A DNA stretch of 64,000 nucleotides from Candidatus Bathyarchaeia archaeon (GTDB lineage: Archaea; Thermoproteota; Bathyarchaeia; Bathyarchaeales; Bathycorpusculaceae): contig JBEKOM010000010.1 of the NCBI GenBank assembly GCA_049521795.1, positions 1-64,000 on the forward strand, in the 5' to 3' direction. Shown piece after piece: positions 7,801 to 50,363 of the stretch. Numbering within the stretch: the first letter of the stretch is position 1; each line of letters begins with the position of its first letter. Position numbers and translations under genes: made by a program. The notes beneath the pieces are model-generated. The model was given only the letters and a program-made list of their open reading frames with translations, made no database searches and was not told the DNA's origin.

Positions 7801-9080
7801 AGGACATAGTTTACGTCCCACCGCCCACTGTAAACATAACGTTCACAACGAACGGGATAGGAAGCGACACAAACAGCGCAACAGTGATGACCATAGACAG
7901 CATACCCTACGGTTACAGCCAACTGCAATCCCTCTCCGTCAACTGGGCGCCAGGCTCAAACCACACGATAACTGTTACCAACCCGGTGGCCGCTACCTAT
8001 GGAAAACAATATGCGTTCATAAACTGGACCAACGGAGACGGGCTAAAATCGGGAACGTCGAACTACACAGTACCAAATACTGACACCGTAGTCACAGCCA
8101 ACTTCAAAACTCAATTCCAACTAACAGTAACCACAAACCCAGTTGGTCTGACTCCTCGACCATGGGTCACGCCCTCTGGTACAGGCAGTGGAGGCACATG
8201 GTACGAAGCAAACACCAACGTCACTCTGATTGCTTCCCCCCTCGCCATAAACACTCTGAGCAACTGGTACACATTCAACTATTGGGTACTAGATGGGACA
8301 CCACAGAAAACAAACACCATTCAGCTAAAAATCAAAATGGATCAAGCTCACACAACAATCGCCAACTACGCTCACTTCAAGATGAAAGGGTATTTCACTG
8401 ACAGCAACTTCAATCCGATAAGCTCTTTCACCTGCATAACCGCGCCCAAGACAGGGACCGGCTACAAGATAAGCGCTACCTACCCAGCGACGTTTTACTA
8501 CAACCTGCAAATCACAAACAACGACCCAACTGGAACGTTTACAATTACAATGCTCGTCCCTTCAGACTTCGCCCTGACGCCACTCTCACCACGAGCTAGC
8601 CCAGTGCAAATCGACGGAAAACCCGTCACCTACTCAATCTCAAATCCTGGGGTACTCACTATTTCCAACGTCCAAATCAAACAAAACCAGATGATAACCA
8701 TATCGGTGCATCTGAAGTACACGGATTCCTATAGCAGCAAGGCCACGTTCTCAATAGATTATCCATTTATTGCGACGGTGAACCTTATACAGCTAACAAC
8801 CACCACCATCACCGCAGTCGGCAAACAAATGACCGCAATAGGAGGATTCATAACCAATAGCAACGGCGCGCCAAAGGCCGGACTCACAGTCACTGTCACA
8901 ACGCAGAACGGAATCGTTGGAACAGCTGTCTCAGCAAATGACGGGTCCTACTTCATTACGGTTCCAGCTGGAACCTACACCGTGACAATCACCAATTCAC
9001 TGAAGACTCAATTAGCCCAAGTCAAAAACGTCATAGTCACTCAAAATCAATTCGCAGAACAAGACTTCACGATCAAGTAG
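4803..9080 (+). CDS. Large secreted/surface protein: NHL beta-propeller, Ig-like domains, HEXXH metallopeptidase, C-terminal carboxypeptidase-regulatory-like domain
   Basis: Signal peptide; about six repeats of GxGxGQFxxPxGIAVDxxGxVYVAD; AAHEVGHTFGL; many N-x-S/T sequons. Confidence 0.85.
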   Translation: MKRVGEEALVLLLITVLCVSILMSANLIKIFPVHASTFLKTWGSYGSGIGEFNNPTAVAVDSYGHVYVADAGNNRVEEFDNDGDFVAQFGGVGSGTGQFGWTCGVAVDAYGDVYVSDWTNSRIVEFSEGNLTWGTFGSGPGELEGPLGIAVDTNGFIYVLDSQYGTNNRVEKFDYSGTFITQFGSAGSGPSQFNGSFGVTVDNYGNVYVPDYNNSRVVKFGVDSTTSSWGTFGTGPGQLYNPMYAAIDDLGYVYLTDNYNSRVEKFDSTGNYITELGSYGTGDGQFRAPEGIAVDGSGDVFVADAANNRIDKFLLPNPPVRFVIDSVSEGSPVAGQPFDVIVTATDVFGNVVTGYAGTVHFSCSDSLAVLPSDYTFQTDDNGEHTFSVTFDAAGTQTLNVWDTLDPSIFGSNSWTVLGLTVVNVETDVPPSSDWNYIITVVNSQMEVAPGTVIENFTLPAGGGNITFSDPVFLEGGVFNITAASKFEYTTEISTQQYDDYSSSVIEDLNATLYLHEYSAMTVTFANAFVGAFTTQPLGSAPPSGINFSIPANQPYPIQAAWNVTLKNDGRIDLVVNKTMAILVNFTRPMQSGQAVNVTVTFNGTTYGQVVQQSALAQNSVIIFQPIIPKYNGTMTITGTYQIGTSANPSSLTGNPTSLASTAVTVKDTMILPIYFYSLTNSNYGSVNATDITQMVGNTTAFINATYPVKNVAVSASTTTIAGSAASNSPSKFQGIINDCIAISTQAAKSSYGKATRGIGIGPNNGPGQDYFTYHGAPGGAGFTVNPNCHGVVVLDGYYTAAAHEVGHTFGLNWPPTSEEYVTYPLNGKATSGIWPAQNQWRTGYDIMGTAPYRTLDLTWIDSTSYAQLLSMTKAAGNDPPLLIVSGLIYKDGTVVLPQTWYQLQSGVPDTVVPGNYALQFYDSSGRLISTTSFDAPFYVQIDPGVTVGQNMPDLSNFGTVQTDVTGFAFTIPYPQGTAQVNIVDNTNPGSPIVLKTVSAKDIVYVPPPTVNITFTTNGIGSDTNSATVMTIDSIPYGYSQLQSLSVNWAPGSNHTITVTNPVAATYGKQYAFINWTNGDGLKSGTSNYTVPNTDTVVTANFKTQFQLTVTTNPVGLTPRPWVTPSGTGSGGTWYEANTNVTLIASPLAINTLSNWYTFNYWVLDGTPQKTNTIQLKIKMDQAHTTIANYAHFKMKGYFTDSNFNPISSFTCITAPKTGTGYKISATYPATFYYNLQITNNDPTGTFTITMLVPSDFALTPLSPRASPVQIDGKPVTYSISNPGVLTISNVQIKQNQMITISVHLKYTDSYSSKATFSIDYPFIATVNLIQLTTTTITAVGKQMTAIGGFITNSNGAPKAGLTVTVTTQNGIVGTAVSANDGSYFITVPAGTYTVTITNSLKTQLAQVKNVIVTQNQFAEQDFTIK

Positions 9081-9229
9081 CGGACACCACAATCTACAGT
9101 CACAAAAACAACCATGCAAACAAAACTAGACACGCGCGCCTCGCTGACCCGAACAAGAACTTCCCCATCAGCCAAGACGACAAAGAACCTGTAAACAAAA
9201 AATGATAAAAGAGGAGGTGAAAACCCAAG

Positions 9230-9649
9230 ATGAACAAAAAACTTTTCTTAGCCGGACTCCTGGCAATATCGGTAATTGCTCTTGGAACAGCATCTTTTGC
9301 CGGAGCTCAACTTGCTGACTATTACCCCGGACCTGTTAATTACACTATAACCAAGTGGATAGTAATCTGGTATTTCAAAACAGTTGACCAGTATGGCGGC
9401 GGCTCGTTCGATGGGAGAACTGTCATAAAGAGCACGGTCACTGCCTATGCCCTGGATGCCACTGGTAATTACAAGCCTGTAAAACCTCTCTGCATCCTTA
9501 CGACTAAAGACTATGTGATGCTCATTTTCCTTCCTAGTGCCCTCCCAGCCCATAATACGGATGGCAGTAGTGCCGTGACCGGAACATTAACTAATGGCCA
9601 AACATTCGACGCTACGGGCCCAGGCTGGTCTCTGATCACAATCCACTAA
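9230..9649 (+). CDS. Secreted hypothetical protein
   Basis: MNKKLFLAGLLAISVIALG signal peptide; GGAGGTGA SD. Confidence 0.8.
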   Translation: MNKKLFLAGLLAISVIALGTASFAGAQLADYYPGPVNYTITKWIVIWYFKTVDQYGGGSFDGRTVIKSTVTAYALDATGNYKPVKPLCILTTKDYVMLIFLPSALPAHNTDGSSAVTGTLTNGQTFDATGPGWSLITIH

Positions 9650-9659
9650 GCGCGCGCGA

Positions 9660-9895
9660 CCTACGCAACCGGCAACGTCATCGAGTCATCTTCGCCCGCC
9701 GTGGCAGACAACAACGTTCATCGGCTCCGACGACAATTACGTGTACGCTCTCAACCAACGCAACGGGAGACTATTATGGAGCCTCAAGACAGGAGGTTGG
9801 GCAGGAGAGTCTTCACCAGCCATCGCCGACAGAGTTCTGTACACAGGTTCACTGGATGGAAAAATATACGCGCGCTAACCGCGCGCTACTATATA
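9660..9895 (+). pseudogene. PQQ-like beta-propeller repeat remnant
   Basis: Frameshifted pieces TGNVIESSSPAVAD / GSDDNYVYALN / LWSLKTGG / SSPAIADRVLYTGSLDGKIYA. Confidence 0.7.
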
Positions 9896-10476
9896 TGGGA
9901 ATCTGAATCCAAGACTTCGAACCAAACTCTCACTTTTTTCTATCAATCGAACATTGATCATACGCGCGCTACTACTATGTTGAAAAGTGCGGGGGTTTAC
10001 GCAGGGTGGTAGTTGCTGGGGCTTCAGTATTTTCTCTTCGCGCGCCATATGGCTGGTATCTGCACCTAATTAGGTATGAATACCTGCGGGCCCGCCATCC
10101 ACGGTTGCGAATTTGTACCGTTTTCAGGGTGTCTGCCGTGTCGCAGCAAATTAGAGGCTTCGCTCAGTATTTGAATCTCACTGCTTTGGGTGTCTTCATG
10201 GTTGACAAAGGTTTTGACATGGCTATTTGCCGATGCCATCAAACATGTCTCCTTGCTTGCCGACGAGCGCCATGCAAATTGCAACGTATGATGCAAACTA
10301 TCATGTTCATCCTCGAGACATTTGCAACATGCGCGCACATATAAGGGGTTAATGTGAAATTGCATCAATGACAAATCCATTCTTCACGCCATCACAACAT
10401 CGCTTGTATCGCGCACTTTAGCGCGCGCGAAAAGTCTAATTAACAAGACGGCTAACTACTAATTGAATGGAAGGGG

Positions 10477-11181
10477 TTGCATATGGGTATTTTTGACAAG
10501 ATAAAGGAAGTTGACTTGATAACCGAGCTGTGTGAGCATCTTCGACAGATCGGTATAGAAGCAACAGTGTTGGATGTCAAGAGCCCCGAAGCCATACATC
10601 ACACTCCAACCATGCACATCATTTATAGCATAAAAAACATTCCCCCGCTGGGCTGCGTCAAGGTCGAAGGCCGAAACATCGACTTAGTAGAGGTATGTAG
10701 GTTCTTGGGAAGCGCAGGTGGCTTGAGTGGTAGCGCAAGCGCAGGTGGCTTCGGTGGTAGCGCAGGCCCGGGTGGTCCTCTCGCGACTTACAGGTACAAC
10801 TATATATTAAAGGCAAATGTGGGAAAACTGGAGGACAAGCTTAAGGCGGAGGCCGAACGGATCACGAAAGGTCTCCTCGGCAGGGAAATCATCGATTACA
10901 TGTGGTTGGGCGGAGAACTGGCGCAACTTTTGAACGCTGACACGGAACTGAAGAATATGCTGCTTGGATTTGGATCGCCAAAACTCATGGTACATCCTAA
11001 CAAGAAGCTTCAATATGTGGAGATAACGCCCATAGTTTCATCGACAAACATCGTGATTGGCGGAATTCCCATAAAGTACAATCTGACTGTGGGGAGAAAG
11101 GCGTTTCCAACCCGTGAAGCCTTCGAGGCCTACGACAGAATCGCTCAACACATACGAAGTATCCTAAGCTCTCAACCATAA
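10477..11181 (+). CDS. Hypothetical protein with a Gly/Ser linker
   Basis: 234-aa ORF; short tandem GGTAGCGCAGG-like repeats encode GSAGGLSGSASAGGFGGSAG. Confidence 0.7.
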   Translation: MHMGIFDKIKEVDLITELCEHLRQIGIEATVLDVKSPEAIHHTPTMHIIYSIKNIPPLGCVKVEGRNIDLVEVCRFLGSAGGLSGSASAGGFGGSAGPGGPLATYRYNYILKANVGKLEDKLKAEAERITKGLLGREIIDYMWLGGELAQLLNADTELKNMLLGFGSPKLMVHPNKKLQYVEITPIVSSTNIVIGGIPIKYNLTVGRKAFPTREAFEAYDRIAQHIRSILSSQP

Positions 11182-11281
11182 TTTCAAAGAAATAGAAGCA
11201 TGAGCTCGAAGTGCCGAAAGCGCCAATTCAGAGTGACAACATGCCCTTCCGTCGCAAGACCAATCTACCAGGCCATCATAT

Positions 11282-11539
11282 TTGGATCCAAATATCCATG
11301 GCACATTGAAACCGAGGAGGGGTACCCACCACCATCCCACCTCGGCACTCATGCAAAAAAGACTCACCGCCATCGCAGAAAAATACAGCGTCCACGTACA
11401 AAACGTCAGGTTCCAACTGATCCTCGAACTCAAAGCCCTAGCCGAACTCGCACAACAAAAAGCCAATGACACTCACCCAGCGAAAGAAGAAACCAAACAA
11501 AACTGGATCCACCTCGCCGCATACATCGCCAGGTCATAA
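11282..11539 (+). pseudogene. Probable gene fragment, helical hypothetical protein
   Basis: Helical, protein-like ELKALAELAQQKA...WIHLAAYIA that seems to continue (QVINK) after a frameshift. Confidence 0.35.
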
Positions 11540-11778
11540 ACAAATAGGCAAAACCATCAGCTCTGAAGCCATCTCAAGGATTACGTAGCGAATGGCTGTC
11601 ACACATTGGGTGCCAGAAGCGCGAATGAGAAAGCAATGGGGCCTGCCGCTATCATGTGGTCGTCGTAGAGGAATCCTGGTATAGAAGATTACTCCATAAG
11701 GGATTTATTCATAGAGAGAACTCATAAGGATGTGGAGAGGGAGAAGTAGAGGTAGGCTCAGAACAAGGAGGTGAACGT

Positions 11779-12018
11779 GTGGAGATTTCGATAAACGCAA
11801 AGCAGATAATCGCAGTGATTTGGACAATAATCGCTTTCGTAATATCACTAGTAATAGTGCTCGCACTGGGCTTTCCAGCGGCTGGTACGTCCAATGTCTT
11901 CGGTGGCCCATGGCAGTACTTGGTGGCATTGTTCTTCGGCCTCTTCTTGGTAATAACCGTTCCAGTCTACTTGCTCATAGCCCTTTGGCACATAGTTTCA
12001 AAGTGGGACACTACGTAG
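11779..12018 (+). CDS. Small two-TM membrane protein
   Basis: GGAGGTGA SD before GTG; two hydrophobic helices. Confidence 0.75.
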   Translation: MEISINAKQIIAVIWTIIAFVISLVIVLALGFPAAGTSNVFGGPWQYLVALFFGLFLVITVPVYLLIALWHIVSKWDTT

Positions 12019-12215
12019 GTCGCAGGACTGCCAGCGTGCAAGCGCTGTGTCAAACACGTCGCACTGAAGTGGGTTCTATCAAGATTTCACCACAAATTAA
12101 CGAAGATTCGCACACATTTCTCGACTTGTGAGTGCCTCTTTGTTCATCTGTGCGACATTTTTGAGAAACAATATACTCATGATCGGCTACTGAAGGACTA
12201 CTGCATAACAGATAA

Positions 12216-12461
12216 ATGAAACCTCTGACCTACAAAAGCTCGGGATGGAATTTGAGCCTTGACGAAATTGAGGCCTTCGCTAGTTCTTTGAAGAACTGTC
12301 CAAAATGCGGTTCAGAGGAAGGATTTTGGCTCGCCGCAAACCGCGAAAGGAGTTATGTCCAATGCAAGCACTGCGGAGCCATTTTAGAGTTTTGCGAGGT
12401 TCTATCACATCCAGAAAAGGCCAAAGGCTCAAAAAGTGCCTTCAGAAAACTGAAGCTATAA
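12216..12461 (+). CDS. Zinc-ribbon protein
   Basis: CPKCG...CKHCG. Confidence 0.75.
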   Translation: MKPLTYKSSGWNLSLDEIEAFASSLKNCPKCGSEEGFWLAANRERSYVQCKHCGAILEFCEVLSHPEKAKGSKSAFRKLKL

Positions 12462-12937
12462 CGTGAGAACTGAACGTTCTGCTTTTCTCTTCTCGAACAT
12501 GGTGGTTCACACGAAATCCAACGCACATTCGAGTTCTAAATGGTAACAGGCTTAAATGCCCGAGTTCTTGAGATGCTTGGGACCTCGGGCAAACGGAAAT
12601 CAAAGTCGCCTTCTCCTTTTCTTCCTCTCAGGTCAAAAGTTAACAATGTGTATCTTCATTAAAACGTTTACTGCACCGTTCAGTATATGTCACTTTTCTA
12701 CGTATATCCACTTTCCACTTCATTTCCAACGGGGCAATCTAGCGCGCGCAAAGCCTAGTCTCTTTTTTTCCGGCGTAGGCGACAAGCAAGATCTCTCCAG
12801 TTTCAGGAAGCAGGCGTCGCGGAAACTGTTCACGGCGCTCTCCTATTCGCATCTTCAAAAATGGTTGCGCGAAACATACAAATCGTTGCCAGAAAGTTTT
12901 TAGGCCCGCTCTTCGCTAAACTACTTGAGACTTATCG

Positions 12938-13855
12938 GTGGGCATGGCCATCAAAAGAGGCGTTATTTTTGATATCAAGAAATTCGCAATTGATGACGGA
13001 CCTGGGATACGCACAACCATATTCTTCAAGGGTTGCCTTCTGCGCTGCAGGTGGTGCCATAACCCTGAGGGTCAGCTACAGACACCGGAATTGATGTACA
13101 GAAGAACTAGGTGTGACGGCTGTGCCGAGTGCGTGGGGATCTGTCCGAAAGAGGCAATTTCATGCCCTCTCAAAAGAATATCCATAAACAGGAATCACTG
13201 CAATCTGTGCGGAGAATGTTGCCAGGTATGTCCAACAGGGGCCCTGGCGATTGTTGGAAAGCAAGTGAGCTTAGAAGAGGTCTTAAGAGAAATTGACAAG
13301 GACTCAATCTTCTACGATGAGTCAAAGGGCGGCGTGACAGTTTCTGGAGGAGAACCTCTCTTGCAACTCGATTTTCTAGACGCGCTTCTCAAAGAGTGCA
13401 AAGATAGAGACATTCGCACCGCAGTCGATACTTGTGGCTACGCCTCGCATGATGCCTTCGACAAAATCAGCAATAAGGTAGATCTTTTCCTGTATGACAT
13501 CAAGACTATGAATGGGAAAAAACATATGAAATACACAGGCGTGTCAAACAAGTCAATTCTCGAAAATCTCAAAAGATTAGCCGAAGATGGAAGTAACATT
13601 CAGATTCGTTTTCCCATTATCCCAGGAATCAACGATGACAAGGAAAACGTCACCGAGACAGCTGAATTTGTAGCTTCGTGCAGAATAAAGAACATGAGTC
13701 TTCTCCCTTACCACCGAGCGGGAATCGAGAAGTACAAGGGCCTAAGCAGGGCATACAAGCTGAAAAAGATCCAAACTCCATCTGACCAGGACCTAAATCT
13801 AATCAAAGAAGAACTCGAGGCTTTTGGGTTGAAAGTGAAGATAGGGGGAGGATAG
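12938..13855 (+). CDS. Glycyl-radical enzyme activating enzyme (radical SAM with ferredoxin insert)
   Basis: DGPGIRTTIFFKGCLLRCRWCHNPE; two CxxCxxCxxxCP; GGVTVSGGEP. Confidence 0.95.
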   Translation: MGMAIKRGVIFDIKKFAIDDGPGIRTTIFFKGCLLRCRWCHNPEGQLQTPELMYRRTRCDGCAECVGICPKEAISCPLKRISINRNHCNLCGECCQVCPTGALAIVGKQVSLEEVLREIDKDSIFYDESKGGVTVSGGEPLLQLDFLDALLKECKDRDIRTAVDTCGYASHDAFDKISNKVDLFLYDIKTMNGKKHMKYTGVSNKSILENLKRLAEDGSNIQIRFPIIPGINDDKENVTETAEFVASCRIKNMSLLPYHRAGIEKYKGLSRAYKLKKIQTPSDQDLNLIKEELEAFGLKVKIGGG

Positions 13856-13856
13856 C

Positions 13857-16220
13857 ATGAATGAAAGGGTTAGGAAACTGAGGGAACAGAGCATTCATAC
13901 GAAGCCGTATATCACAGCTGAAAGAGCGGTTCTTGTAACAGGGTTTTATGAGAGCGACGTGGCGAGCCAGCCGTCCGAGCCTGTGCGAAGGGCACTGGCG
14001 TTCAAGCATGTGCTTGAAAATAAAAAAATCTACGTCGGGGAAGAGGAGCTGATCGTCGGTGAAAGAGGGCCCGCTCCTAAGGCAGTTCCCACGTATCCCG
14101 AAATATGTTGCCATAGCCTTGAAGACCTCGAAATTCTGAGCACGAGAAAAAAGACGCCATATGCAGTTAATGAGGAAACAAAGAGGACATACAAGGAAAA
14201 GATCATTCCGTTCTGGAAAGGTAGGTCAATAAGAGAGACAATATTCAGTGAGATGTCTCAAGAATGGAAAACCGCTTATCAAGCAGGGGTGTTCACTGAA
14301 TTTCTGGAGCAGAGAGCTCCGGGGCACACAGCTCTAGACAACAAGATTTACGGAAAAGGATTAGTCGACTTCAAGAAAGACATCGCAAGAAGCATTCAAA
14401 GCCTCGATCTCTTGAATGATCCGAGAGCGCACGAAAAGATGGAAGAACTCAAAGCCATGGACATTGTCGCGGACGCTCTTATCTGCAATGGAGCGAGATA
14501 CGCAGAAAAGGCGAGAGAACTGCAAAAAAAGGAAAAGAACCACGCGAGAAGAAAGGAACTGAAGAAGATAGCTGACGTGTGCACTCGTGTGCCAGCTCAC
14601 GCGCCACGAGACTTCTGGGAAGCCTTACAGCACTACTGGTTCATTCACCTCGGAGTAATAACAGAACTCAACCCTTGGGACGCTTTCAACCCTGGCAGGC
14701 TCGACCAACATCTCTACTCTTTCTACACGAAGGGTTTTGACGACGGAACCTTGACGAAGGAAAGTGCAAAAGAACTCCTGCAGCTGCTTTGGATAAAGTT
14801 CAACAACCAGCCAGCTCCGCCGAAGGTGGGAGTCACGGCAGAAGAAAGCAACACGTACAATGATTTCGCACTGATAAACACGGGCGGAGTCAAGACTGAC
14901 GGTTCAGACGGAGTGAACGAACTTTCCTATCTGATACTTGATGTCATAGAGGAAATGAGGATTCCTCAGCCTAGTTCGATGGTCCAGATTAGCAAAAAGA
15001 CTCCTGACAGTTTCTTGAAAAGAGCATTGAGAATCATAAGGACGGGCTTTGGGCAACCATCAGTGTTTAACACTGATGTCATAATTCAAGAGCTTCTGAG
15101 GCAGGGAAAAAGAATCGAAGATGCGAGAAACGGAGGCGCAAGTGGGTGCGTTGAGACAGGAGCCTTTGGCAAAGAGTGCTACATTCTCACGGGGTATTTC
15201 AACTTGGTCAAATTGCTCGAGACCACTTTGAACAACGGTCTGGACCCGAGAACAGGTCAAAAGATTGGACTCAAAACAGGCGACCCTACTAAGTTCGGCT
15301 CTTTTGACGAAGTTTTCGACGCGTTCAAGAGGCAACTCAACTACTTTGTCGATCTCAAAATCAAGGGAAACAACATAATAGAAAGATTGTATGCCGAACA
15401 CTTGCCCGTACCTTTCTTGTCCCTCCTCATAGACGATTGCATAGCGAAAGGCAAGGACTACAACGATGGAGGAGCTCGATACAATACAAGCTACATTCAA
15501 GGCGTGGGACTCGGCACGGTAACAGACTCGCTCGCAGCAATCAGCTATCAAGTTTTCGACAAGAAACAGATCACCATGAGAGAGTTACTCAAAGCCCTAA
15601 AAGCTGACTTCAACGGGTACGAAACCCTCCGTCAGATACTCCTAAACAAAACACCGAAATACGGAAACGATGACGATTATGCAGACAACGTGATGAAAGC
15701 CGTTTTTGAAGCCTACTACGAGGCAATAGAAGGAAGACCCAGCACGAAAGGCGGCAACTACAGAATAAACCTGTTGCCAACGACGGTACACGTCTATTTC
15801 GGAAGGGTCACAGGGGCTACGGCCGACGGGAGAAAAGCGTTGGAACCCCTCTCTGAGGGAGTGTCGCCGGTCCAAGGAGCCGATAGAAAAGGCCCCACAG
15901 CGGTGATAAAATCCGTCTCCAAAATAGACCATGCAAGAACAGGCGGAACCCTGCTTAACCAGAAATTCGCCCCCGAACTCTTGGCCGATGAAGAAGGACT
16001 AGACAAGCTGGCCCATCTAATTCGCACGTATTTCAAACTTGACGGGCATCATATTCAATTCAACGTGGTGAATGCTGAGACTTTGCGTGATGCACAGAAA
16101 CATCCCGAAAAATACGGAGATCTCTTGGTAAGAGTCGCAGGATACAGTGATTACTTTGTTAATCTCAGCGTAGAACTGCAGAACGAAATAATCAAGAGGA
16201 CTGAACACAAATCCTTCTGA
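13857..16220 (+). CDS. hypD: Glycyl radical enzyme, trans-4-hydroxy-L-proline dehydratase-like
   Basis: RVAGYS glycyl loop, SGCVE Cys loop; HypD-type motifs PTYPEICCH, FTEFxEQRAPGH, WDAF, QPAPPKVG, ESxTYxDF, LTGY, LPTT. Confidence 0.85.
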   Translation: MNERVRKLREQSIHTKPYITAERAVLVTGFYESDVASQPSEPVRRALAFKHVLENKKIYVGEEELIVGERGPAPKAVPTYPEICCHSLEDLEILSTRKKTPYAVNEETKRTYKEKIIPFWKGRSIRETIFSEMSQEWKTAYQAGVFTEFLEQRAPGHTALDNKIYGKGLVDFKKDIARSIQSLDLLNDPRAHEKMEELKAMDIVADALICNGARYAEKARELQKKEKNHARRKELKKIADVCTRVPAHAPRDFWEALQHYWFIHLGVITELNPWDAFNPGRLDQHLYSFYTKGFDDGTLTKESAKELLQLLWIKFNNQPAPPKVGVTAEESNTYNDFALINTGGVKTDGSDGVNELSYLILDVIEEMRIPQPSSMVQISKKTPDSFLKRALRIIRTGFGQPSVFNTDVIIQELLRQGKRIEDARNGGASGCVETGAFGKECYILTGYFNLVKLLETTLNNGLDPRTGQKIGLKTGDPTKFGSFDEVFDAFKRQLNYFVDLKIKGNNIIERLYAEHLPVPFLSLLIDDCIAKGKDYNDGGARYNTSYIQGVGLGTVTDSLAAISYQVFDKKQITMRELLKALKADFNGYETLRQILLNKTPKYGNDDDYADNVMKAVFEAYYEAIEGRPSTKGGNYRINLLPTTVHVYFGRVTGATADGRKALEPLSEGVSPVQGADRKGPTAVIKSVSKIDHARTGGTLLNQKFAPELLADEEGLDKLAHLIRTYFKLDGHHIQFNVVNAETLRDAQKHPEKYGDLLVRVAGYSDYFVNLSVELQNEIIKRTEHKSF

Positions 16221-16529
16221 AAGAATCCCGTTGCATCTTAATCGAACGATAATCTGAACCCTTTTGTTTGTCTCCAGCAGAGATCAATCGAATCCATACG
16301 CTGAAAATGCTGTATATAAGTCCTGTCGGAAGTGACGTCTTCGATTGACGCATATTCTCTGTCAAAGTGAAAGTGCTTTGAAGATGACAGCTGTATTCCC
16401 ATCTTCGTCCTACATATCTTCTAGGCTTGCTTGCTCTTCTTTCTCTTAGAGTGCACTGCATTCCCAGATAATCCGCGTGCCTGCGAAGACTTATTAGACT
16501 AGGAATGTGGAACAGAAACAAGTGAAATT

Positions 16530-17453
16530 ATGTCTAGTGAGCAGATTTTCAAGAAAGTTCTAGTTGCTATTGATGGCTCACTTCCGTCTGTTATTGCTGA
16601 AGAACTAGCAGTCTTCATGGCTAAGAAACTTGATTCAAATGTGACGGTTCTTCACGTAATATCCCATGAGTTCATGGGTTCCCAGCTTGAGAAATATACT
16701 CCAATACTCTACAAGGATGTGCCTCTAGGCACTGGAAGTGGTCCCGAAGAACGTGTTTCTGCAGTGCCAGCCTCGGGCGCACAGGAAGCTGTTGCAAAAG
16801 AAATCATGATTTCATATAGACAAAGAGGCACAGACGTGATTGAAGAGGCTGCAGCCCTCTTTAAAGAAGAAGGCATACCGGTGGATCAGAAGCTTTTAGA
16901 GCATGCTGATCCAGCCGAAAGCATCATAAGAGAGGCTGAAAAGGGAAACTACGATTTAGTAGTTATTGGGTCTAGTGGAGAGGAAGAGAAGAAGCCGCAT
17001 TTGGGAAGCGTTGCTAAGAAAACAGCGTTATACGCCAAGACCTCTGTCCTAATCGCCAGAGAAAAAACACAGATATCAAAAATAATGGTTCCAGTCGACG
17101 GCTCTGAGCATTCAAAAAAGGTTGTCCATTATTCCACAATTCTGGCTAAAAAGTTGGGCGTTGAAGTCGCATTACTTTATGTTCAAGAGCCTGATTTGCC
17201 TCCCAGAATCATGAAAGAAATAGGAACACGAATACTGTCCGAAGCAGCTGGCCAATTTGAAGCGATAAAGCCAGATCAGAAGCTGGTATCGGGCGATCTA
17301 GCCAAGACTATTATTCAAACGGCAAAAAAAGGGGACTACGACCTGACCCTAATGGGACACAAAGGGCACGGCGTCGTTGCCCAATTCTTACTGGGAAGTG
17401 TAAGCGACCACGTAATCCAATACATAGACCGTTCAGTACTCCTAATAAGATGA
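16530..17453 (+). CDS. Tandem universal stress protein
   Basis: Two USP domains (VAIDGS, VPVDGS, LLGSVSDHV). Confidence 0.92.
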   Translation: MSSEQIFKKVLVAIDGSLPSVIAEELAVFMAKKLDSNVTVLHVISHEFMGSQLEKYTPILYKDVPLGTGSGPEERVSAVPASGAQEAVAKEIMISYRQRGTDVIEEAAALFKEEGIPVDQKLLEHADPAESIIREAEKGNYDLVVIGSSGEEEKKPHLGSVAKKTALYAKTSVLIAREKTQISKIMVPVDGSEHSKKVVHYSTILAKKLGVEVALLYVQEPDLPPRIMKEIGTRILSEAAGQFEAIKPDQKLVSGDLAKTIIQTAKKGDYDLTLMGHKGHGVVAQFLLGSVSDHVIQYIDRSVLLIR

Positions 17454-45048: not shown

Positions 45049-46503
45049 TCAATCTCCGAAGAAAAGTCTTGTTTCCCCCATGGTTTTGACATCCATTGCT
45101 TTGATTCTGGCAACGATCGGAAAGTCTCTCACCGCTTTTCCGAGGACGAGACAGTTATGTGGTGGCAGGTCTCTGGCTATGGATCTTACCGTTTCTGCAT
45201 CTACTCTCGAAGCTCTTGAAACGACGTCCAAATCATGCTCGTTCGTGAAGTTGAAGAGGAATATGTTGTCTGCTTGACGATAGATGTTTTCTCTGATCGT
45301 GTCAGGCTGATTGGTTATGAATGTTGTGAAGATGCCGAAATGGCGCATGCGGGTGACAATGTCGTCCCAATAAGTCTCACGTAAGTAGAGGTGGGCTTCT
45401 TCTGCGAACAGGAACACTGCCTTGAGCTTCCAATTCGTCAGGGATTCAACGAGTCTTCCAAGAATGTGCTCGACGACTATCTGCCGGTCAATCGTCGACG
45501 TGTTCCGCAGGTTTATGACTATGGCACCACCTTCTTCGCTTGCTTTCAACAAGGATTCTTCAAGCAAAGCGGCCTCAGCAACGTTGTCCGTGAAAAAGCC
45601 CGAGTTTACTAACGTGTGGTATCGTGAGAACAGTGCGTCGCGCACGTGCTGGTTGCAGTTACAATTACGTATCGCTTCTCCCAGCTCATGCAACGTCAGG
45701 CTGTCTCTTTGTTTCAACTCTTTCCATATGCGTCTAAATTCACGAGCAGATGTGCCGGGCAGATGAAGCGCGTGAACAAGGATGCCGAGTAGGACGTGGA
45801 GGCTCAACTGTTTCAGAGCTACCTTGAAGTTTTGTGAGGGTGTCAAGACATGTATCTTGTCATGGTTGATGTTTCTTTTTCCGTCAGACGCTATCCCCAG
45901 GCTGAGGTACTCACCGTTCAAGTCGAAGACGACGACTGTGGCCTTGTAGTTCAACAGGTTTATCATCAGCAGCTTGGACAGGTGGGATTTGCCTGTTTCC
46001 TTTTTTCCTGTTATGATGTTCAGTCTTCCATCAAGTGATGAAGCGTCTATCGTTAGAAGTGAGGAGTCTTTCATGGCGCCCAGGACTATTGGGAGTTTTC
46101 CGCTTATCTTGGCGAGCTTGAGCAGTGTCGAGATCGGTAGTTTTTTTATCGTTGATTGTGAGCGTGAGGGAAGCCAGGAGCTGGTCGGGTTCAAGTTGTC
46201 GTTCTCGACGGTTGCCCTGATCTTGCAGATGAGAAGGCTTGCGTCTTGAATGTAGGTGATGTGTGGAGCGATTTCAAGAGGATCAACGTCCTCGCCTTGA
46301 AGCATTTCTCCACCGTCTGGCAGACTGCGGAGAAGCTCTTCTAGGACGCCTGGAACTGCGGCAAACTGCACGTCGATCACCTGCGCGATCAAGGCTCTTC
46401 TTGCTTCGTCGTCTTGAACGAGCAAGTAATCTCCTTTTTCTACGGTTTCGTTCGGGAAACTCAGAACGTAGATCGCATTGCCCTCTTTTTTGTAGAGCTT
46501 CAT
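45049..46503 (-). CDS. HerA-like ATPase
   Basis: Walker A GKKETGKS; FDLNGEY; Walker B LFAEEAH; TRMRHFG..ITNQP; likely start ATG 46503 right after the nurA-like stop. Confidence 0.88.
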   Translation of the reverse strand: MKLYKKEGNAIYVLSFPNETVEKGDYLLVQDDEARRALIAQVIDVQFAAVPGVLEELLRSLPDGGEMLQGEDVDPLEIAPHITYIQDASLLICKIRATVENDNLNPTSSWLPSRSQSTIKKLPISTLLKLAKISGKLPIVLGAMKDSSLLTIDASSLDGRLNIITGKKETGKSHLSKLLMINLLNYKATVVVFDLNGEYLSLGIASDGKRNINHDKIHVLTPSQNFKVALKQLSLHVLLGILVHALHLPGTSAREFRRIWKELKQRDSLTLHELGEAIRNCNCNQHVRDALFSRYHTLVNSGFFTDNVAEAALLEESLLKASEEGGAIVINLRNTSTIDRQIVVEHILGRLVESLTNWKLKAVFLFAEEAHLYLRETYWDDIVTRMRHFGIFTTFITNQPDTIRENIYRQADNIFLFNFTNEHDLDVVSRASRVDAETVRSIARDLPPHNCLVLGKAVRDFPIVARIKAMDVKTMGETRLFFGD

Positions 46504-46505
46504 GG

Positions 46506-47579
46506 TTAGCTCTCTCCTTTGCCGAAGGGTCCGAACAAGAGTTTGTGCATGTCTGGCCTGTTGATGATCTGAAGCCCGCATTTGCGCGTGATGAAGTGCT
46601 GCATTGCTAGCACTTCGTTGGCTGTGAACGTGCACAGGATGTGGGCTAACCGGAGGGTTTCAGGGTAGCTCTGCGAGATCAGGTCGTTGCCTAGCAGTCT
46701 CTCAACTGCTTCTACTCTCAGCTCAGGAGGAACCTCTGCGTCGATGTCGAGCCTGAAGGCACAGTTTCCACTGCTTAATTTGGCAACGTAGACTTCTCCC
46801 AATGGAACCATTGGAGGCTTGAGTCTCAAACCGATGGTCTCAACCAAGTATGGAGGTCTTTGTTCGAACGCGAGATCTGTTATGAGGGAGCCGTTGACTC
46901 TTAGATTTGTCATTTTTGAAAAAGCCAAGATCGCATTGCCTCTTTCCCTTCCATCTTTCAGAATTTCTTTCATGCGATGTGTCGGCGTGTCTGCTGTTCC
47001 AGAGGTTAAGGAGCCGTCAAAAAGGATCAATCCGTTGTTCAAGGTTTTTGTGAGCATCGCTTGTAACCATCTTTCGAGGAGGTTTGCTATTCGTGTCGGC
47101 ATCTGCAAGAGGCTCGGCGCGCTTTGGTGGCCTGATTCGCGTGCGGAGGTTAAGTATGCTCTTTCCAGGGTGTTGTAGACTTCTCTTCTGTTTTCTTCCG
47201 TTACCTGGAAGATGAATGGGCCTACTCGAGTGTATCTGTAGTTTTCTCCCTGTTTCCAGACATTTGCCCCTCTAACGGCTATCACTATTCCTGCGCTTGT
47301 TTCGGCGATCTTCATTGTCGACGTGTCTACTGCTGCAACAACGGTTTGTTCATGTCGGGGTTTGAGGAGCATAGGTTCAAGTCTAAGCCTGAGTGTTTGG
47401 ACTGTTTCCTCTGTGCTGACTTGTTGAATTAACTGCTCCTTTTGTTGAAAGTAATGATTGTGTCGGTGACCTAACGAGTACAAACTGAGTGTGGTAAACT
47501 GATGCGGGAGCGTGGTGTCCATTGCGGGTTGTGGAAAGTTATATTTTGGTGTTGTTGTAATAGGGTATTGTGCAATCAC
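46506..47579 (-). CDS. NurA-like nuclease
   Basis: VAAVDTS; LILFDGSL; FSK; YPETLRLAH. Confidence 0.85.
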   Translation of the reverse strand: MIAQYPITTTPKYNFPQPAMDTTLPHQFTTLSLYSLGHRHNHYFQQKEQLIQQVSTEETVQTLRLRLEPMLLKPRHEQTVVAAVDTSTMKIAETSAGIVIAVRGANVWKQGENYRYTRVGPFIFQVTEENRREVYNTLERAYLTSARESGHQSAPSLLQMPTRIANLLERWLQAMLTKTLNNGLILFDGSLTSGTADTPTHRMKEILKDGRERGNAILAFSKMTNLRVNGSLITDLAFEQRPPYLVETIGLRLKPPMVPLGEVYVAKLSSGNCAFRLDIDAEVPPELRVEAVERLLGNDLISQSYPETLRLAHILCTFTANEVLAMQHFITRKCGLQIINRPDMHKLLFGPFGKGES

Positions 47580-47672
47580 TAAGATTCACCAATAGCCAAT
47601 TGTTTGAGGAAGACATATTTAAGTGTTGTGCATGTACAAGATGTACAATACAATAAACAACAAGGTGAACCC

Positions 47673-48074
47673 TTGACGGAGACAGAAGCAAAAAAGCCAA
47701 TACGGTTAAAGATGAAGATAGGCGAAATAGAGTTCGAAATTGAATGTCAAGAAGATCAGCTGCAGACGACAGTAGACAAGATTCTCTCAACTGTTACTGA
47801 CAGATTGAAAGAGACTCCTCTAATGATGGAGAGGCCAGCCCAACCGCCAAGGGCAGAAACCTGCAAGGGTATAATTCAGAAGCTGTGGGAGGAAGGCTGG
47901 TTCGCAGTTGCCAAAGGTCTAGGCGAAGTGCACAGTGAGATGGCAAGACGGGGCTTCCACTATGACCGGACCGCGGTCGCCCATGCCTTGATCGACCTAG
48001 TCAAGGACGGCGTTTTGACGAGAGAAGGAAAACCCCGCAGGTATCAATACGCCCAAAAAAGACCGGCTTCCTAA
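47673..48074 (+). CDS. Two-domain protein: N-terminal beta-hairpin/helix, C-terminal wHTH (A)
   Basis: IRLKMKIGEIEFEIEC; LWEEGWF...LGEVHSEM...AVAHALIDLVKDGVLTREG..RRYQY; GGTGA SD before TTG. Confidence 0.78.
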   Translation: MTETEAKKPIRLKMKIGEIEFEIECQEDQLQTTVDKILSTVTDRLKETPLMMERPAQPPRAETCKGIIQKLWEEGWFAVAKGLGEVHSEMARRGFHYDRTAVAHALIDLVKDGVLTREGKPRRYQYAQKRPAS

Positions 48075-48093
48075 ACGATGTATATTTATATAG

Positions 48094-48612
48094 CTAGGCT
48101 AGAGTGCCAATTCTTGCCTTAATTCTTGGTAGAATGTCTTTTTGAAGCTGAACTAAGCCAAAGGTTGTGATCTTGTAGGTGTCGTCAGCGGTTTTCATCG
48201 CCATCTCGTTTTTTACGAGTTCGCCCAGGCGTGTGCTCGTTATCTTTGCGTCTTTTCCGAGTTTTGCTTGGAGTTCTTCCTTGGAAAGACCATCGGCCTG
48301 TATCTTGCCCAATCGGCGTCCCATATGATTAGCTAGAAGCAGCAAGGCGAGAGTCTCGTTGTCCGTCAACTTGTTTCTTGGCACGAGTATGTAGGGGCCC
48401 TCTTCTGCAAAGGCCAAGACTTTCTCGCTGTCCTTTGCCAGGGTTTTCAGGTCAACGCTCAATGTTAGTTTTCTTGCAGTTTCGAATGAAGGAAGTAGCT
48501 CGTTAAAGAATTTGTTCAGTAGTAACCAAACTTCTTCTGGGTTGCCTGAAAGCGTTTTTTCAAGGTCCTTGTACCTGATGTGAACCATCAAGCTGTTTGG
48601 CTCTTCGCTCAA
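48094..48612 (-). CDS. Two-domain wHTH protein (B)
   Basis: LMVHIRYKDLEKTLSGNPEEV; LSKEELQAKLG...TSTRLGELVK...YKITTFG. Confidence 0.78.
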   Translation of the reverse strand: MSEEPNSLMVHIRYKDLEKTLSGNPEEVWLLLNKFFNELLPSFETARKLTLSVDLKTLAKDSEKVLAFAEEGPYILVPRNKLTDNETLALLLLANHMGRRLGKIQADGLSKEELQAKLGKDAKITSTRLGELVKNEMAMKTADDTYKITTFGLVQLQKDILPRIKARIGTLA

Positions 48613-49079
48613 CCGATCTTACCTCTGAGCTTGGCTAGGACTTCGTTTTCAACCCATCTCTCGCCTTGGATTGTGAGCTTAAATTCAGGTCTGTTAGGAT
48701 CTGGTTTGAAAACTTGCCCTCGCTTCGTCATTTCGTTGAGTCGAGCTGGGACCATACATTTTATTCCACTTGACTCTAGAAGCTTCGTTATCTGCGCTGC
48801 AGTGTTCTTCTTCCCTTCTGAAGCAGACAGGGTCAAGCCTATCGCTTCATAATGTGTTAGGTTTTCGTGGGCTACTATGACAGGTCCCTCTGTGGTGGAT
48901 TCAACAATGCCTTTCAGCTGCGCCCCTGACGGAATCAAACGGCTTGAGACAAGTTCAGACACTTTTTGCATGAAATTGTCTGGAAAGCTCTCGAGTATCT
49001 TGAGAACTTCTTGGGGGTTTTCGCCTTCGACTATGATTTCGCCGAAGGGCGTTTTGATTCTTGCTTCGACCCTGTTCAT
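48609..49079 (-). CDS. Two-domain wHTH protein (C)
   Basis: VEARIKTPFGEIIVEGENPQEV; TAAQITKLL...PARLNEMTKRGQV...FKLTIQG. Confidence 0.78.
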   Translation of the reverse strand: MNRVEARIKTPFGEIIVEGENPQEVLKILESFPDNFMQKVSELVSSRLIPSGAQLKGIVESTTEGPVIVAHENLTHYEAIGLTLSASEGKKNTAAQITKLLESSGIKCMVPARLNEMTKRGQVFKPDPNRPEFKLTIQGERWVENEVLAKLRGKIG

Positions 49080-49570
49080 TCAGCGTCTCCTCTTGAACGT
49101 AGAGCTTCCTTTTCGGCGAGGATGTACACGTAGCCGGTGTTGGTGCTCCAACGTCTGATCTTTACTTTCTTGACTAGCTCCATCAGGACTGCTGCAAGGG
49201 TGCGCTCTGAGTGTTCTAGTTCATTTGCCCTGAGTGCTTCGCTGAGCTCGTCGATCGTGCGTGGCCGCCATTTTCCCCAATCAGTTTCGAGAACTTTTAA
49301 GAGTGCCTCATCGAGTTTTGCCGTATGCGATATCTGTGGGTATCGTTGGCTTGGAGGCCTTTCCGCGTTGGGAGCCCCGGTCTTGACGGTTAGTGTTGCC
49401 ACCTTCTTAGGTTTCACTTTTTCAAATGCCTTGTCGATGTCGCTTATCAGGCTCGGCAGAGCTTTCATCGTATCAAGAACCTGTTCATAAGCGCCGGTGA
49501 CCTCGACCTCATAGTCTCCCATCTTCACTCGAAAGGTGAAACTTCCAGTTTTTCTAGTTTTCTTCTGCAA
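49076..49570 (-). CDS. Two-domain wHTH protein (D)
   Basis: FTFRVKMGDYEVEVTGAYEQV; PRTIDELSEAL...LAAVLMELVKK..IRR...GYVY. Confidence 0.78.
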   Translation of the reverse strand: MQKKTRKTGSFTFRVKMGDYEVEVTGAYEQVLDTMKALPSLISDIDKAFEKVKPKKVATLTVKTGAPNAERPPSQRYPQISHTAKLDEALLKVLETDWGKWRPRTIDELSEALRANELEHSERTLAAVLMELVKKVKIRRWSTNTGYVYILAEKEALRSRGDAE

Positions 49571-49727: not shown

Positions 49728-50363
49728 TTGGCAAAGAAAGGACTTTCTGTCTGGATCTTCAGCTCTCTGACGTTTGTATCGGTTGCGCACCTGATTGAGG
49801 CGATTTACGTTTTGGTTTCTGGAAGCGAGATCAAGCTTCTTAAGCTCTGTCCCTTTGTCGGCGGGTCTCTGAGCAGCGTTTCTCCGGTTGCATATCTATG
49901 GCTGTCTGCTGCGGCGAGCTTGGTTTGTTGGGGGATCACGTGCGCAATAGCTTTTGAGAACCCTATGGAAACGCTCTTGAAGAAGGCGGTTGCTGACGCT
50001 AAGAAGCAGAGTGCTGTCGAGACCCAGGTGGTTGAAGATAAGAGCGAAATTCTCGATGCGATGTACGAGACGCTTGAGTCTAGCAGTGAGACTATCGCGT
50101 GCGTTAAGGATATGATCTGCAACGTGAGGACTGAAGTGAAGGAAATTCAACCTTTGACAACGACCGTTGATCTGATCAGGTTAGAGTTGAACGATTTGGG
50201 GAAAGAAGTGGAAAAACTCGAAGACAACGTGAAATATTCTTATGTGTGCCTGGCTTGCGGAAAGCCTTTGTTGCCTGAATTCAAGATATGCCCATACTGT
50301 GGCGAAGATGCCAGACTACTGAGGACTCCTGTCATAGCTGTGACTGATCAAAAGCAGAAGTAG
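49728..50363 (+). CDS. Membrane protein with coiled coil and C-terminal zinc ribbon
   Basis: Two TMs; heptad-like region; CLACG...CPYCG. Confidence 0.8.
   Translation: MAKKGLSVWIFSSLTFVSVAHLIEAIYVLVSGSEIKLLKLCPFVGGSLSSVSPVAYLWLSAAASLVCWGITCAIAFENPMETLLKKAVADAKKQSAVETQVVEDKSEILDAMYETLESSSETIACVKDMICNVRTEVKEIQPLTTTVDLIRLELNDLGKEVEKLEDNVKYSYVCLACGKPLLPEFKICPYCGEDARLLRTPVIAVTDQKQK

Follow-up and report, generated by a model that had tools for sequence, protein, structure and literature searches.

The window analysed here, a stretch of 64,000 nucleotides from a Bathyarchaeia genome, carries a second, non-canonical HerA-NurA pair of that genome, nurA2-herA2. We consider the locus to be probably the copy, in Bathyarchaeia, of a module that is old, inherited vertically and dispensable, and that combines a divergent NurA2-HerA2 with its own family of beta-hairpin/winged-helix proteins; a role of this module in DNA-end processing or repair is very likely. 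The pair is a second one because a canonical nurA-herA-mre11-rad50 operon is present on a separate contig (G000:C15, 9787-15741) and the HerA encoded there has the stronger similarity to HerA proteins that are solved or curated. The solved HerA 4d2i matched the C15 HerA with an E-value of 3.6e-18 versus 3.9e-7 for HerA2, and the NCBIfam model NF040937 gave 91.7 bits versus 26 bits, values that leave the C15 HerA also under the equivalog cut-off of this model, yet clearly closer to it than HerA2. The original prediction had reported that mre11 and rad50 are missing from the window, and neither is indeed present in the nurA2-herA2 neighbourhood; the possibility that this pair is the sole canonical orthologue did not hold, given the operon on C15.

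The gene herA2 (45049-46503, minus strand) encodes a divergent HerA-type hexameric ATPase/translocase of 484 amino acids, and nurA2 (46506-47579, minus strand) a divergent NurA-type nuclease of 357 amino acids with a GTG start and GGTGA 6 nt upstream; the coordinates 46503 and 46506 bear out the predicted adjacency with a 2-nt gap. The herA2 start is supported by the alignments of relatives, which begin at residue 1 of the 484-aa form in 20/20 loci. HerA2 passes the Pfam model PF01935 for the HerA central domain (51.7 bits, cut-off 23.2, residues 164-350) and its best solved relative is Sulfolobus HerA 4d2i, but it falls below the canonical HerA equivalogs NF040937 (cut-off 800 bits) and NF040819 (23 bits, cut-off 970). 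Residues G166, K168, G171, K172 and S173, which we take to be the Walker A motif, and E368 and E369, presumably Walker B, are invariant in 31 sequences of 32-83% identity. NurA2 passes PF09376 with 24.7 bits (cut-off 21) over profile positions 2-119 only, and this match is marginal, since NurA2 was not reported when the whole genome was scanned with the same model; a comparison with solved structures gave no relative at E <= 0.1. In 45 NurA2 sequences no change occurs at D85, D188, D278 or H313 and hardly any at E169, positions that may correspond to the published catalytic residues. At the level of sequence, the conserved nucleotide-binding residues of HerA2 and the putative active-site residues of NurA2 are intact, and the two proteins would work like the known end-resection machine of a HerA hexamer and a NurA dimer. 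The nurA2 gene was found in 35/41 relatives and in 114/201 genomes of the class.

Four small genes lie next to the pair. Gene A (47673-48074, plus strand, 133 aa) is divergent from nurA2 and convergent with B, and the other three form an operon on the minus strand that is opened by D (49076-49570, 164 aa) and continues with C (48609-49079, 156 aa) and B (48094-48612, 172 aa), with 4-nt overlaps at D/C and at C/B. One divergent small gene and three overlapping ones had been predicted and this was confirmed, as were the housekeeping surroundings, which comprise GatE, GatD, an Elp3-like protein, an amino-acid-kinase-family protein (possibly a UMP kinase), a NUDIX protein and an HhH-GPD glycosylase. 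The start of A, originally placed at 47604, had to be replaced by the TTG at 47673, which is preceded by GGTGA: in many relatives stop codons interrupt the frame upstream of 47673, and the ATG or TTG with which their A genes begin falls at this position in the alignment.

The original prediction described four proteins of the same architecture. AlphaFold models of A (pLDDT 82) and C (pLDDT 74) do present a beta-hairpin and a helix at the N-terminus, then a linker modelled with low confidence, then a winged helix. The winged-helix part of the A model (residues 64-128, pLDDT 92-96) matches known winged-helix domains with Z 9.8-8 over about 65-70 aligned residues, and the C model, with helices 76-119 plus a wing, matched RosR in Foldseek with a probability up to 0.94; the best fold neighbours of the winged helix are regulators of the Fur, BlaI/MecI, PadR and MarR types. 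Homology, in contrast, is clear only within two pairs. Profile comparisons align B with C (hhalign probability 97.5%, E 6e-12) and D with A (96.7%, E 4e-10) over their full lengths, whereas A/D against B/C gave weak probabilities of 2-37%, and some open reading frames of relatives match both the C/B and the D profiles (E 1e-3 to 3e-5). From these alignments the four small proteins are clearly two paralogue pairs, A with D and B with C. The EGP...LT..E motif noticed earlier in B and C is visible in the alignment of the two. C is the most conserved of the four, with 78% mean column identity along its whole length, and D has 625 homologues at E <= 0.01. None of A-D reached the threshold of a Pfam, NCBIfam, PADLOC or PHROG model; the best family match of A was Penicillinase_R / BlaI-MecI PF03965 (15.9 bits, below 22.6), and B, C and D matched no regulator family in Pfam better than E 0.01. 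The N-terminal beta-hairpin/helix module had no named counterpart in the fold and family searches.

The original prediction expected the small genes to be linked to the pair elsewhere, and for A this is the case throughout: A is back-to-back with nurA2 in 20/20 loci of the order, and in the 201-genome class sample the two are adjacent and divergent in 41 of the 42 genomes holding both. Among 55 genomes of the order, 38 carry both A and nurA2, 15 lack both and 2 show an A-like match alone; in no genome does nurA2 occur without A. Repeated loss within genera (4/12 in g33, 4/6 in g41 and 4/6 in g30) indicates that the nurA2/A module is dispensable and not essential. For D-C-B the expectation stood only in part, given that within the order of the window only A is tightly linked to nurA2-herA2, and D-C-B are missing from the fetched flank in 7/20 order loci, being found instead 16-69 kb off or on other contigs. 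C was found in 36/41 relatives and is kept without nurA2 or A in G040 (97% complete, one contig) and G023, and B is kept without nurA2 in G128, G100 and G033. In other Bathyarchaeia families, two to four genes of the B/C/D type immediately precede nurA2-herA2, in the same orientation, in 19/20 loci. The order C-B-D-nurA2-herA2-mre11-rad50 is contiguous in G045, and in G051 we found C-B-B-D-nurA2-herA2-nurA-herA-mre11-rad50, likewise without a break, where the stop and start codons of successive genes overlap. The overlap between D and nurA2 measures 4-8 nt in these two genomes.

The B profile matches 132/301 Thermoproteota genomes, often as tandem pairs. Outside the class, 11/18 loci show the layout of the window, B(-B'), inverted A and nurA2-herA2, in a set picked from B-profile matches and for this reason biased towards having B. 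Five further loci combine these winged-helix genes with NurA-HerA of a third type, again in the chromosomal slot between GatE and NUDIX, which is constant across class and phylum. The small genes and the enzyme pair are shown by these loci to stay together over a phylum-level span, and the original description as lineage-specific had to be given up, the layout recurring across Bathyarchaeia and in other Thermoproteota families. Of the original interpretation as a whole, the second pair and the linkage were upheld, and the lineage-specificity and the clear homology of all four genes were not; its hetero-oligomeric winged-helix complex and the recruitment of the enzymes are hypothetical.

The divergent control region between nurA2 and A (47580-47672, 93 nt) was compared in an alignment of 21 loci. 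Its outer parts are the ribosome-binding sites of nurA2 and of A; between them, starting from nurA2, lie a variable spacer (about 20 nt), a TATA box that is nearly palindromic and a block of conserved sequence. The TATA box (47615-47623) and the putative operator that follows it, with half-sites of the TTGnnCAA type (47615-47660 together, plus strand), are kept across the order in these 21 loci, and a TATA plus TTGyKCAA form is conserved phylum-wide, immediately ahead of the A start. The 19-mer at 47616 is single in the 2.44-Mb genome with up to two mismatches allowed, and the recognition helix and wing of A are invariant in 31 sequences. A second BRE/TATA-like element (47532-47548) lies within the first nurA2 codons, where it overlaps the conserved N-terminal peptide TPKYNFP; it is nearly invariant in the 21 aligned order loci, and in loci outside the class an element resembling it precedes A by 100-150 nt. 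Because the putative operator adjoins the TATA box, is co-conserved with the A recognition helix phylum-wide and is unique in the genome, A is likely a local regulator binding this element. A would bind as a dimer to this palindrome, which closely follows the TATA box, and would set its own expression and probably also that of nurA2-herA2.

Perhaps the four winged-helix proteins are transcription factors and nothing more, a set of paralogous repressors or activators adjusting the expression of nurA2-herA2 and of their own genes and taking no physical part in the enzyme machine. Their generic winged helix, which best resembles those of known regulators, agrees with this, as does the position of A facing nurA2 over a deeply conserved operator whose uniqueness is expected for a dedicated local regulator. 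However, three or four paralogous regulators that stay in one operon over phylum-scale time, with start/stop overlaps into two enzyme genes, would be an unusual circuit for the control of a single operon, and the promoter-like block upstream of D-C-B, although conserved, has no A-type operator. C is moreover conserved over its full length and not just in the recognition helix. Finally, an A-type winged helix is fused C-terminally to a larger protein in 3 of the 150 representatives listed (P0172, P0211 and P0225), of which P0172 and P0211 match HerA (DUF87) and terminase-type ATPase profiles. Neither Pfam nor PHROG has a family that P0225 matches, and its P-loop was read by eye only. For these reasons we regard a purely regulatory function of all four as unlikely.

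The same fusions, together with the D/nurA2 overlaps in G051 and G045, suggest a partner role, and we tentatively propose that B, C and D are physical partners of the enzymes and not regulators only, although the case is somewhat short of even. B, C and D, like A-type domains in general, would be DNA-binding accessory factors for the motor; the shared N-terminal module may assemble the winged-helix proteins into a multi-winged-helix unit, which may load, direct or limit the motor on DNA ends. A more specific and rather doubtful version, drawn by analogy, is that the beta-hairpin/winged-helix proteins could be stoichiometric, trans-acting DNA-recognition subunits of the HerA-NurA machine, a free-standing equivalent of FtsK gamma. 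Such subunits would load the resection motor, or orient it, at certain DNA ends, structures or sequences; if this is true, no dedicated subunit for specificity or regulation would have been known in archaeal end resection before them. The proteins are conserved across Thermoproteota. The module points to an additional, unstudied layer that would assist or control the processing of DNA ends in archaea.

A HerA-type ATPase with a nuclease could also degrade foreign DNA, with the winged-helix proteins as sensors in a defence against viruses or plasmids. HerA2 does match defence HerA models weakly (PADLOC mad8, 5e-16; the antiphage models NF042943, 42.9 bits, and NF042944, 11.6 bits), and its distribution within genera is patchy, a frequent trait of defence genes. 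These scores are nevertheless far under the curated cut-offs of 800 bits for NF042943 and 850 bits for NF042944, and neither NurA2 nor any of A-D has a PADLOC match. The single chromosomal slot kept across class and phylum, the even GC content of the locus with no break against its surroundings and the absence of mobile-element genes near it also speak against defence, which we consider very improbable. DNA-end repair is preferred over it because the cluster of the relatives runs straight into mre11-rad50. That the winged-helix genes and nurA2-herA2 are mere old neighbours beside GatE with unrelated functions would fit the separable D-C-B and the survival of C and B in some genomes without nurA2, but is hardly credible when A and nurA2 are present and lost together, genes overlap at their starts and stops in other families, at least two different types of NurA-HerA are found with this winged-helix gene family, and its domains are fused to HerA-type ATPases.

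The archaeal HerA-NurA end-resection complex is encoded with Mre11-Rad50 in Sulfolobus, Pyrococcus and Thermococcus. The pair in the window resembles it in the adjoining nurA and herA genes, the PF01935 and PF09376 domains and the conserved nucleotide-binding and acidic/histidine residues, and its orthologues in G045 and G051 do lie in one contiguous cluster with mre11 and rad50. Unlike the known complex, the window pair is an extra one that lacks this four-gene cluster and has instead three or four dedicated winged-helix genes, and the HerA2 and NurA2 sequences are far from the characterised enzymes. A 2026 review of NurA gives the nurA/herA/mre11/rad50 four-gene cluster as the conserved context and contains no winged-helix partners, the word "winged" occurring 0 times in it. 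Consistent with the original prediction, which knew of no description, the literature searched gave no published account of NurA2-HerA2 with a winged-helix module.

The defence systems Sir2-HerA and DUF4297-HerA also combine a HerA-type ATPase with an effector nuclease and are patchy among close relatives. The window, however, has no known defence effector family and scores far under the curated cut-offs, and its module is in a fixed chromosomal slot with an inheritance that looks vertical. Small archaeal and bacterial winged-helix repressors (BlaI/MecI, PadR, MarR, Fur, RosR) share the C-terminal fold of A and C. Known archaeal repressors have an operator beside the TATA box, as the putative operator of A does, whereas A-D are under the family thresholds and their N-terminal module is without a named counterpart. 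In FtsK, the gamma domain is a winged helix by which KOPS motifs are recognised and the motor is directed. The winged helices of the window are separate proteins with an additional N-terminal beta-hairpin module, and the analogy is one of mechanism only. In both cases a winged helix would serve a translocase of the HerA/FtsK superfamily, and in P0172 and P0211 an A-type winged helix is carried on the C-terminus of the ATPase-like protein itself.

The window's pair of genes for a HerA-type ATPase and a NurA-type nuclease, herA2 (45049-46503, minus strand; PF01935, 51.7 bits) and nurA2 (46506-47579, minus strand; PF09376, 24.7 bits with the cut-off at 21), is separated by a gap of 2 nt in the ORF listing and adjoins four genes for small winged-helix proteins, A to D. 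Three of these, D (49076-49570), C (48609-49079) and B (48094-48612), form an operon on the minus strand in which C overlaps both D and B by 4 nt, and A (47673-48074, plus strand) is divergent from nurA2. For A, a start at 47604 was ruled out by stops that break the upstream frame in relatives, and the ATG or TTG starts of the relatives line up in the alignment with the TTG at 47673, which follows GGTGA; A is therefore a protein of 133 aa encoded at these coordinates. Genes nearby encode GatE, GatD, an Elp3-like enzyme, an amino-acid-kinase-family protein, a NUDIX protein, a metallo-beta-lactamase-fold protein and an HhH-GPD glycosylase, and the GC content is even throughout the region. The gap, the overlaps and the housekeeping surroundings are thus as described in the original prediction.

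On the plus strand, 49728-50363 encodes a protein of 211 aa whose N-terminus is hydrophobic and whose C-terminal end resembles a zinc ribbon (CxxC...CxxC); it has no match in Pfam. Of 20 loci of the order, four (L047, L050, L052 and L053), all from the window's own family, also have this protein between D and GatE. At 2385-4281 of L052 (genome G005), GatE aligns as five pieces in differing frames, which suggests frameshifts or assembly errors.

The pair in the window is not the only NurA-HerA of its genome (completeness 98.75%), a possibility eliminated by a canonical nurA-herA-mre11-rad50 operon, the existence of which had been proposed as a check, on contig C15 at 9787-15741. HerA from that operon matches the solved HerA structure 4d2i at E 3.6e-18 and NCBIfam NF040937 at 91.7 bits, compared with E 3.9e-7 and 26 bits for HerA2. 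The two HerA proteins are 25% identical (E 2e-6), and NurA2 and the NurA from C15 are 24% identical (E 4.5e-4). In HerA2, G166, K168, G171, K172, S173, E368 and E369 are invariant among 31 sequences; in NurA2, D85, D188, D278 and H313 are invariant among 45. The canonical operon is flanked by AbiEi_1-like and FIST-domain genes, at 15873-17102 and 7983-9563 respectively, the match to the AbiEi_1 C-terminal domain being weak and below the cut-off (20.7 bits). Two more HerA/DUF87-type ATPase genes were seen in the same genome, at C6:44133-44477 and C9:5755-6165, in open frames of 634 and 711 aa.

Linkage of the module was followed within the order Bathyarchaeales. Among 41 relatives, nurA2 was found in 35, C in 36 and A in 37, two of the matches to A being weak. 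A lies back-to-back with nurA2-herA2 in all 20 loci of the order, and at least one of D, C and B lies within the examined flank in 13 of them; in the other seven, C is found elsewhere, 16 or 69 kb off or on another contig. In a class sample of 201 genomes, 55 of them from the order, 38 order genomes hold both A and nurA2, 15 hold neither (completeness 90-99%), none holds nurA2 alone and two (G184 and G033) have only an A-like match. Coordinates compared by hand placed the two genes adjacent and divergent in 37 of these 38 genomes, and the same arrangement was found in all four sampled genomes of the class outside the order that hold both. The position of A beside nurA2, noted at first in this one locus, therefore holds in 41 of 42 genomes of the class sample; the exception, G081, has the genes on different contigs, with nurA2 86 nt from a contig end. 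Because neither gene is present in 15 order genomes and losses recur within genera (the module is present in 4/12 genomes of g33, 4/6 of g41 and 4/6 of g30), the module is dispensable. The A copy of G184 has an internal TAA and nurA2 is not detectable there, so that this looks like a decaying locus.

Outside the order, the association of winged-helix genes with nurA2-herA2 persists. The synteny expected across Bathyarchaeia was borne out, since in 19 of 20 loci from other families of the class two to four genes of the B/C/D type immediately precede nurA2-herA2 on its strand, typically as C-B-B'(-D), and an inverted A like that of the window is present in three of the other-family loci. G045 has an unbroken C-B-D-nurA2-herA2-mre11-rad50 cluster. 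In G051, GatE is followed by C-B-B-D-nurA2-herA2-nurA-herA-mre11-rad50; these genes all lie on one strand, and stops overlap starts. An Mre11 homologue is found elsewhere in four of five other Bathyarchaeia genomes; in two of the five (G087 and G120), the Pfam NurA model reports no NurA besides NurA2. Winged-helix genes also accompany a third type of NurA-HerA at five loci (families f24, f10 and f19) in the GatE-NUDIX slot, and by pairwise BLASTP this type resembles neither pair of the window's genome more than slightly, if at all.

The original prediction called the system lineage-specific, but this could not be maintained. Of 301 Thermoproteota genomes, 132 have matches to the B profile, frequently in tandem pairs. 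Of 18 loci outside the class, which were picked from B-profile matches and are therefore biased towards having B, 13 contain herA2, with nurA2 detected beside 12 of them and undetected in L084, and 11 have the layout of the window, B(-B') and an inverted A followed by nurA2-herA2, several of them beside GatE. The best 80 loci with a HerA2 alignment carry Bathyarchaeia or Bathyarchaeota MAG titles, except for two bacterial titles and one that gives only Thermoproteota. Contigs L136 and L150, titled as bacterial MAGs (Limnocylindrales and Sulfotelmatobacter), have a herA2 that is 78-80% identical and are most likely mis-binned Bathyarchaeia contigs.

Few bases of the locus are as well conserved as the 93 nt that separate nurA2 from A. 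These 93 nt contain, in order, the ribosome-binding site of nurA2, a variable spacer, a near-palindromic TATA box (47615-47623) and a conserved block that extends up to the ribosome-binding site of A. The equivalent site across the phylum has TATA followed by palindromic half-sites of the type TTGyKCAA directly before the start of A, and the recognition helix of A is conserved in step with it. A second copy of this putative operator was searched for in the window's genome and none was found, the 19-mer at 47616 being single even with two mismatches allowed; its single occurrence marks it as a predicted control element for one site rather than the motif of a regulon. D-C-B has its own conserved promoter-like block upstream of D, where an A-type operator was sought and was absent. 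A is likely to be a dedicated regulator that binds the predicted operator.

Within the opening codons of nurA2 there is a second BRE/TATA-like element (47532-47548, with its TATA part at 47537-47544), counterparts of which occur 100-150 nt upstream of A in other lineages. Across the order, the DNA of the initial 16 nurA2 codons (47532-47579, with a peptide ending in TPKYNFP) is nearly invariant, and the next 50 or so codons vary. A non-coding element at 47532-47548 was rejected, and the block is kept as coding, because the reading frame is uninterrupted, all 21 loci have a start codon and a ribosome-binding site, and there is variation at wobble positions; an overlapping signal is possible. 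The conserved 16 codons could encode a docking peptide, overlap a promoter or operator, or do both.

The four small proteins had been predicted to share one architecture. AlphaFold models of C (pLDDT 74) and A (pLDDT 82) do have a common plan, in which a beta-hairpin at the N-terminus is followed by one or two helices and a poorly ordered linker leads on to a winged helix; B and C have an extra C-terminal helix. Homology is firm only within two pairs, as profile-profile comparison joined B to C (probability 97.5%, E 6e-12) and D to A (96.7%, E 4e-10) and gave a weak signal between A/D and B/C (2-37%). Several ORFs of relatives match both the C/B and the D profiles (E 1e-3 to 3e-5). Numerous winged-helix domains resemble that of A at Z 9.8-8 (VIA-align, which covered only residues 59-133), and the C model had nothing at E <= 0.001 in the PDB by Foldseek. 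No family scored above threshold for any of the four in Pfam, NCBIfam, PADLOC or PHROGs. In a protein atlas they matched only archaeal clusters without a name; in weak rows, 16-60% of the members gave a lead to Penicillinase_R. Among all ORFs of the window's genome, these four are the only members, besides one weak match (E 1e-4).

The A/D family has 592 clusters at E <= 0.001 in a profile search of 1.84 billion representatives. Among the 150 listed of these are three larger proteins, P0172 (499 aa), P0211 (479 aa) and P0225 (550 aa), in which an A-type winged helix forms the C-terminus and a coiled-coil-like stretch is also present. Both P0172 and P0211 match HerA (DUF87) as well as a PHROG family whose annotation is terminase large subunit; P0225 has no match in Pfam or PHROGs, and its P-loop motif was read by eye only. 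The P0172 and P0211 fusions indicate, at the level of sequence, that A-type winged helices serve HerA-like DNA motors in cis. P0232 (811 aa) has four to five partial A-type winged-helix matches along its length and no Pfam family, and may be a multi-winged-helix array.

Taken together, NurA2-HerA2 and the winged-helix genes form a conserved, chromosomally inherited and dispensable module that joins a known enzyme pair to an undescribed accessory protein family. Both repair and defence had been offered as its role. DNA-end processing in recombinational repair is likely because of the unbroken clusters with mre11-rad50, and a defence role is unlikely. Perhaps B, C and D, and A as well, are also physical partners of the motor. 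The retention of several winged-helix paralogues together, their overlap with the start of nurA2 in other families, their company with differing NurA-HerA types and the A-type fusions all point this way; however, D-C-B is separable from nurA2-herA2 in the window's order, which calls for caution. Complex prediction with C, B and A, and with NurA2 as the scored partner, returned 0.00 in two runs without controls and gives no answer either way.

HerA-NurA together with Mre11-Rad50 is the textbook archaeal path to resected DNA ends. We know of no account of how the HerA-NurA machine is targeted or restrained, nor of any accessory subunits. In the available portion of its text, a 2026 NurA review describes the four-gene cluster only, names no accessory subunits and contains the word "winged" 0 times (PMC13748450). 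The available part of a Nitrososphaera comparison gives a compact NurA-HerA-Mre11 order with no regulators reported (PMC13707971), and herA and nurA are merely listed in a legend in the accessible part of another paper (PMC7554672). As the original prediction had supposed, a full-text literature search found no description of winged-helix partners of NurA-HerA. In many uncultured archaea there are two or three distinct NurA-HerA systems, and the one linked to winged-helix genes is the common one in Bathyarchaeia, yet losable. The winged-helix family has remained next to NurA-HerA genes across a phylum-scale span of time, in the company of two different NurA-HerA types. It is a concrete, testable candidate for the missing targeting or restraint layer of archaeal end resection, and winged helices on HerA-like motors call to mind the gamma domain of FtsK.
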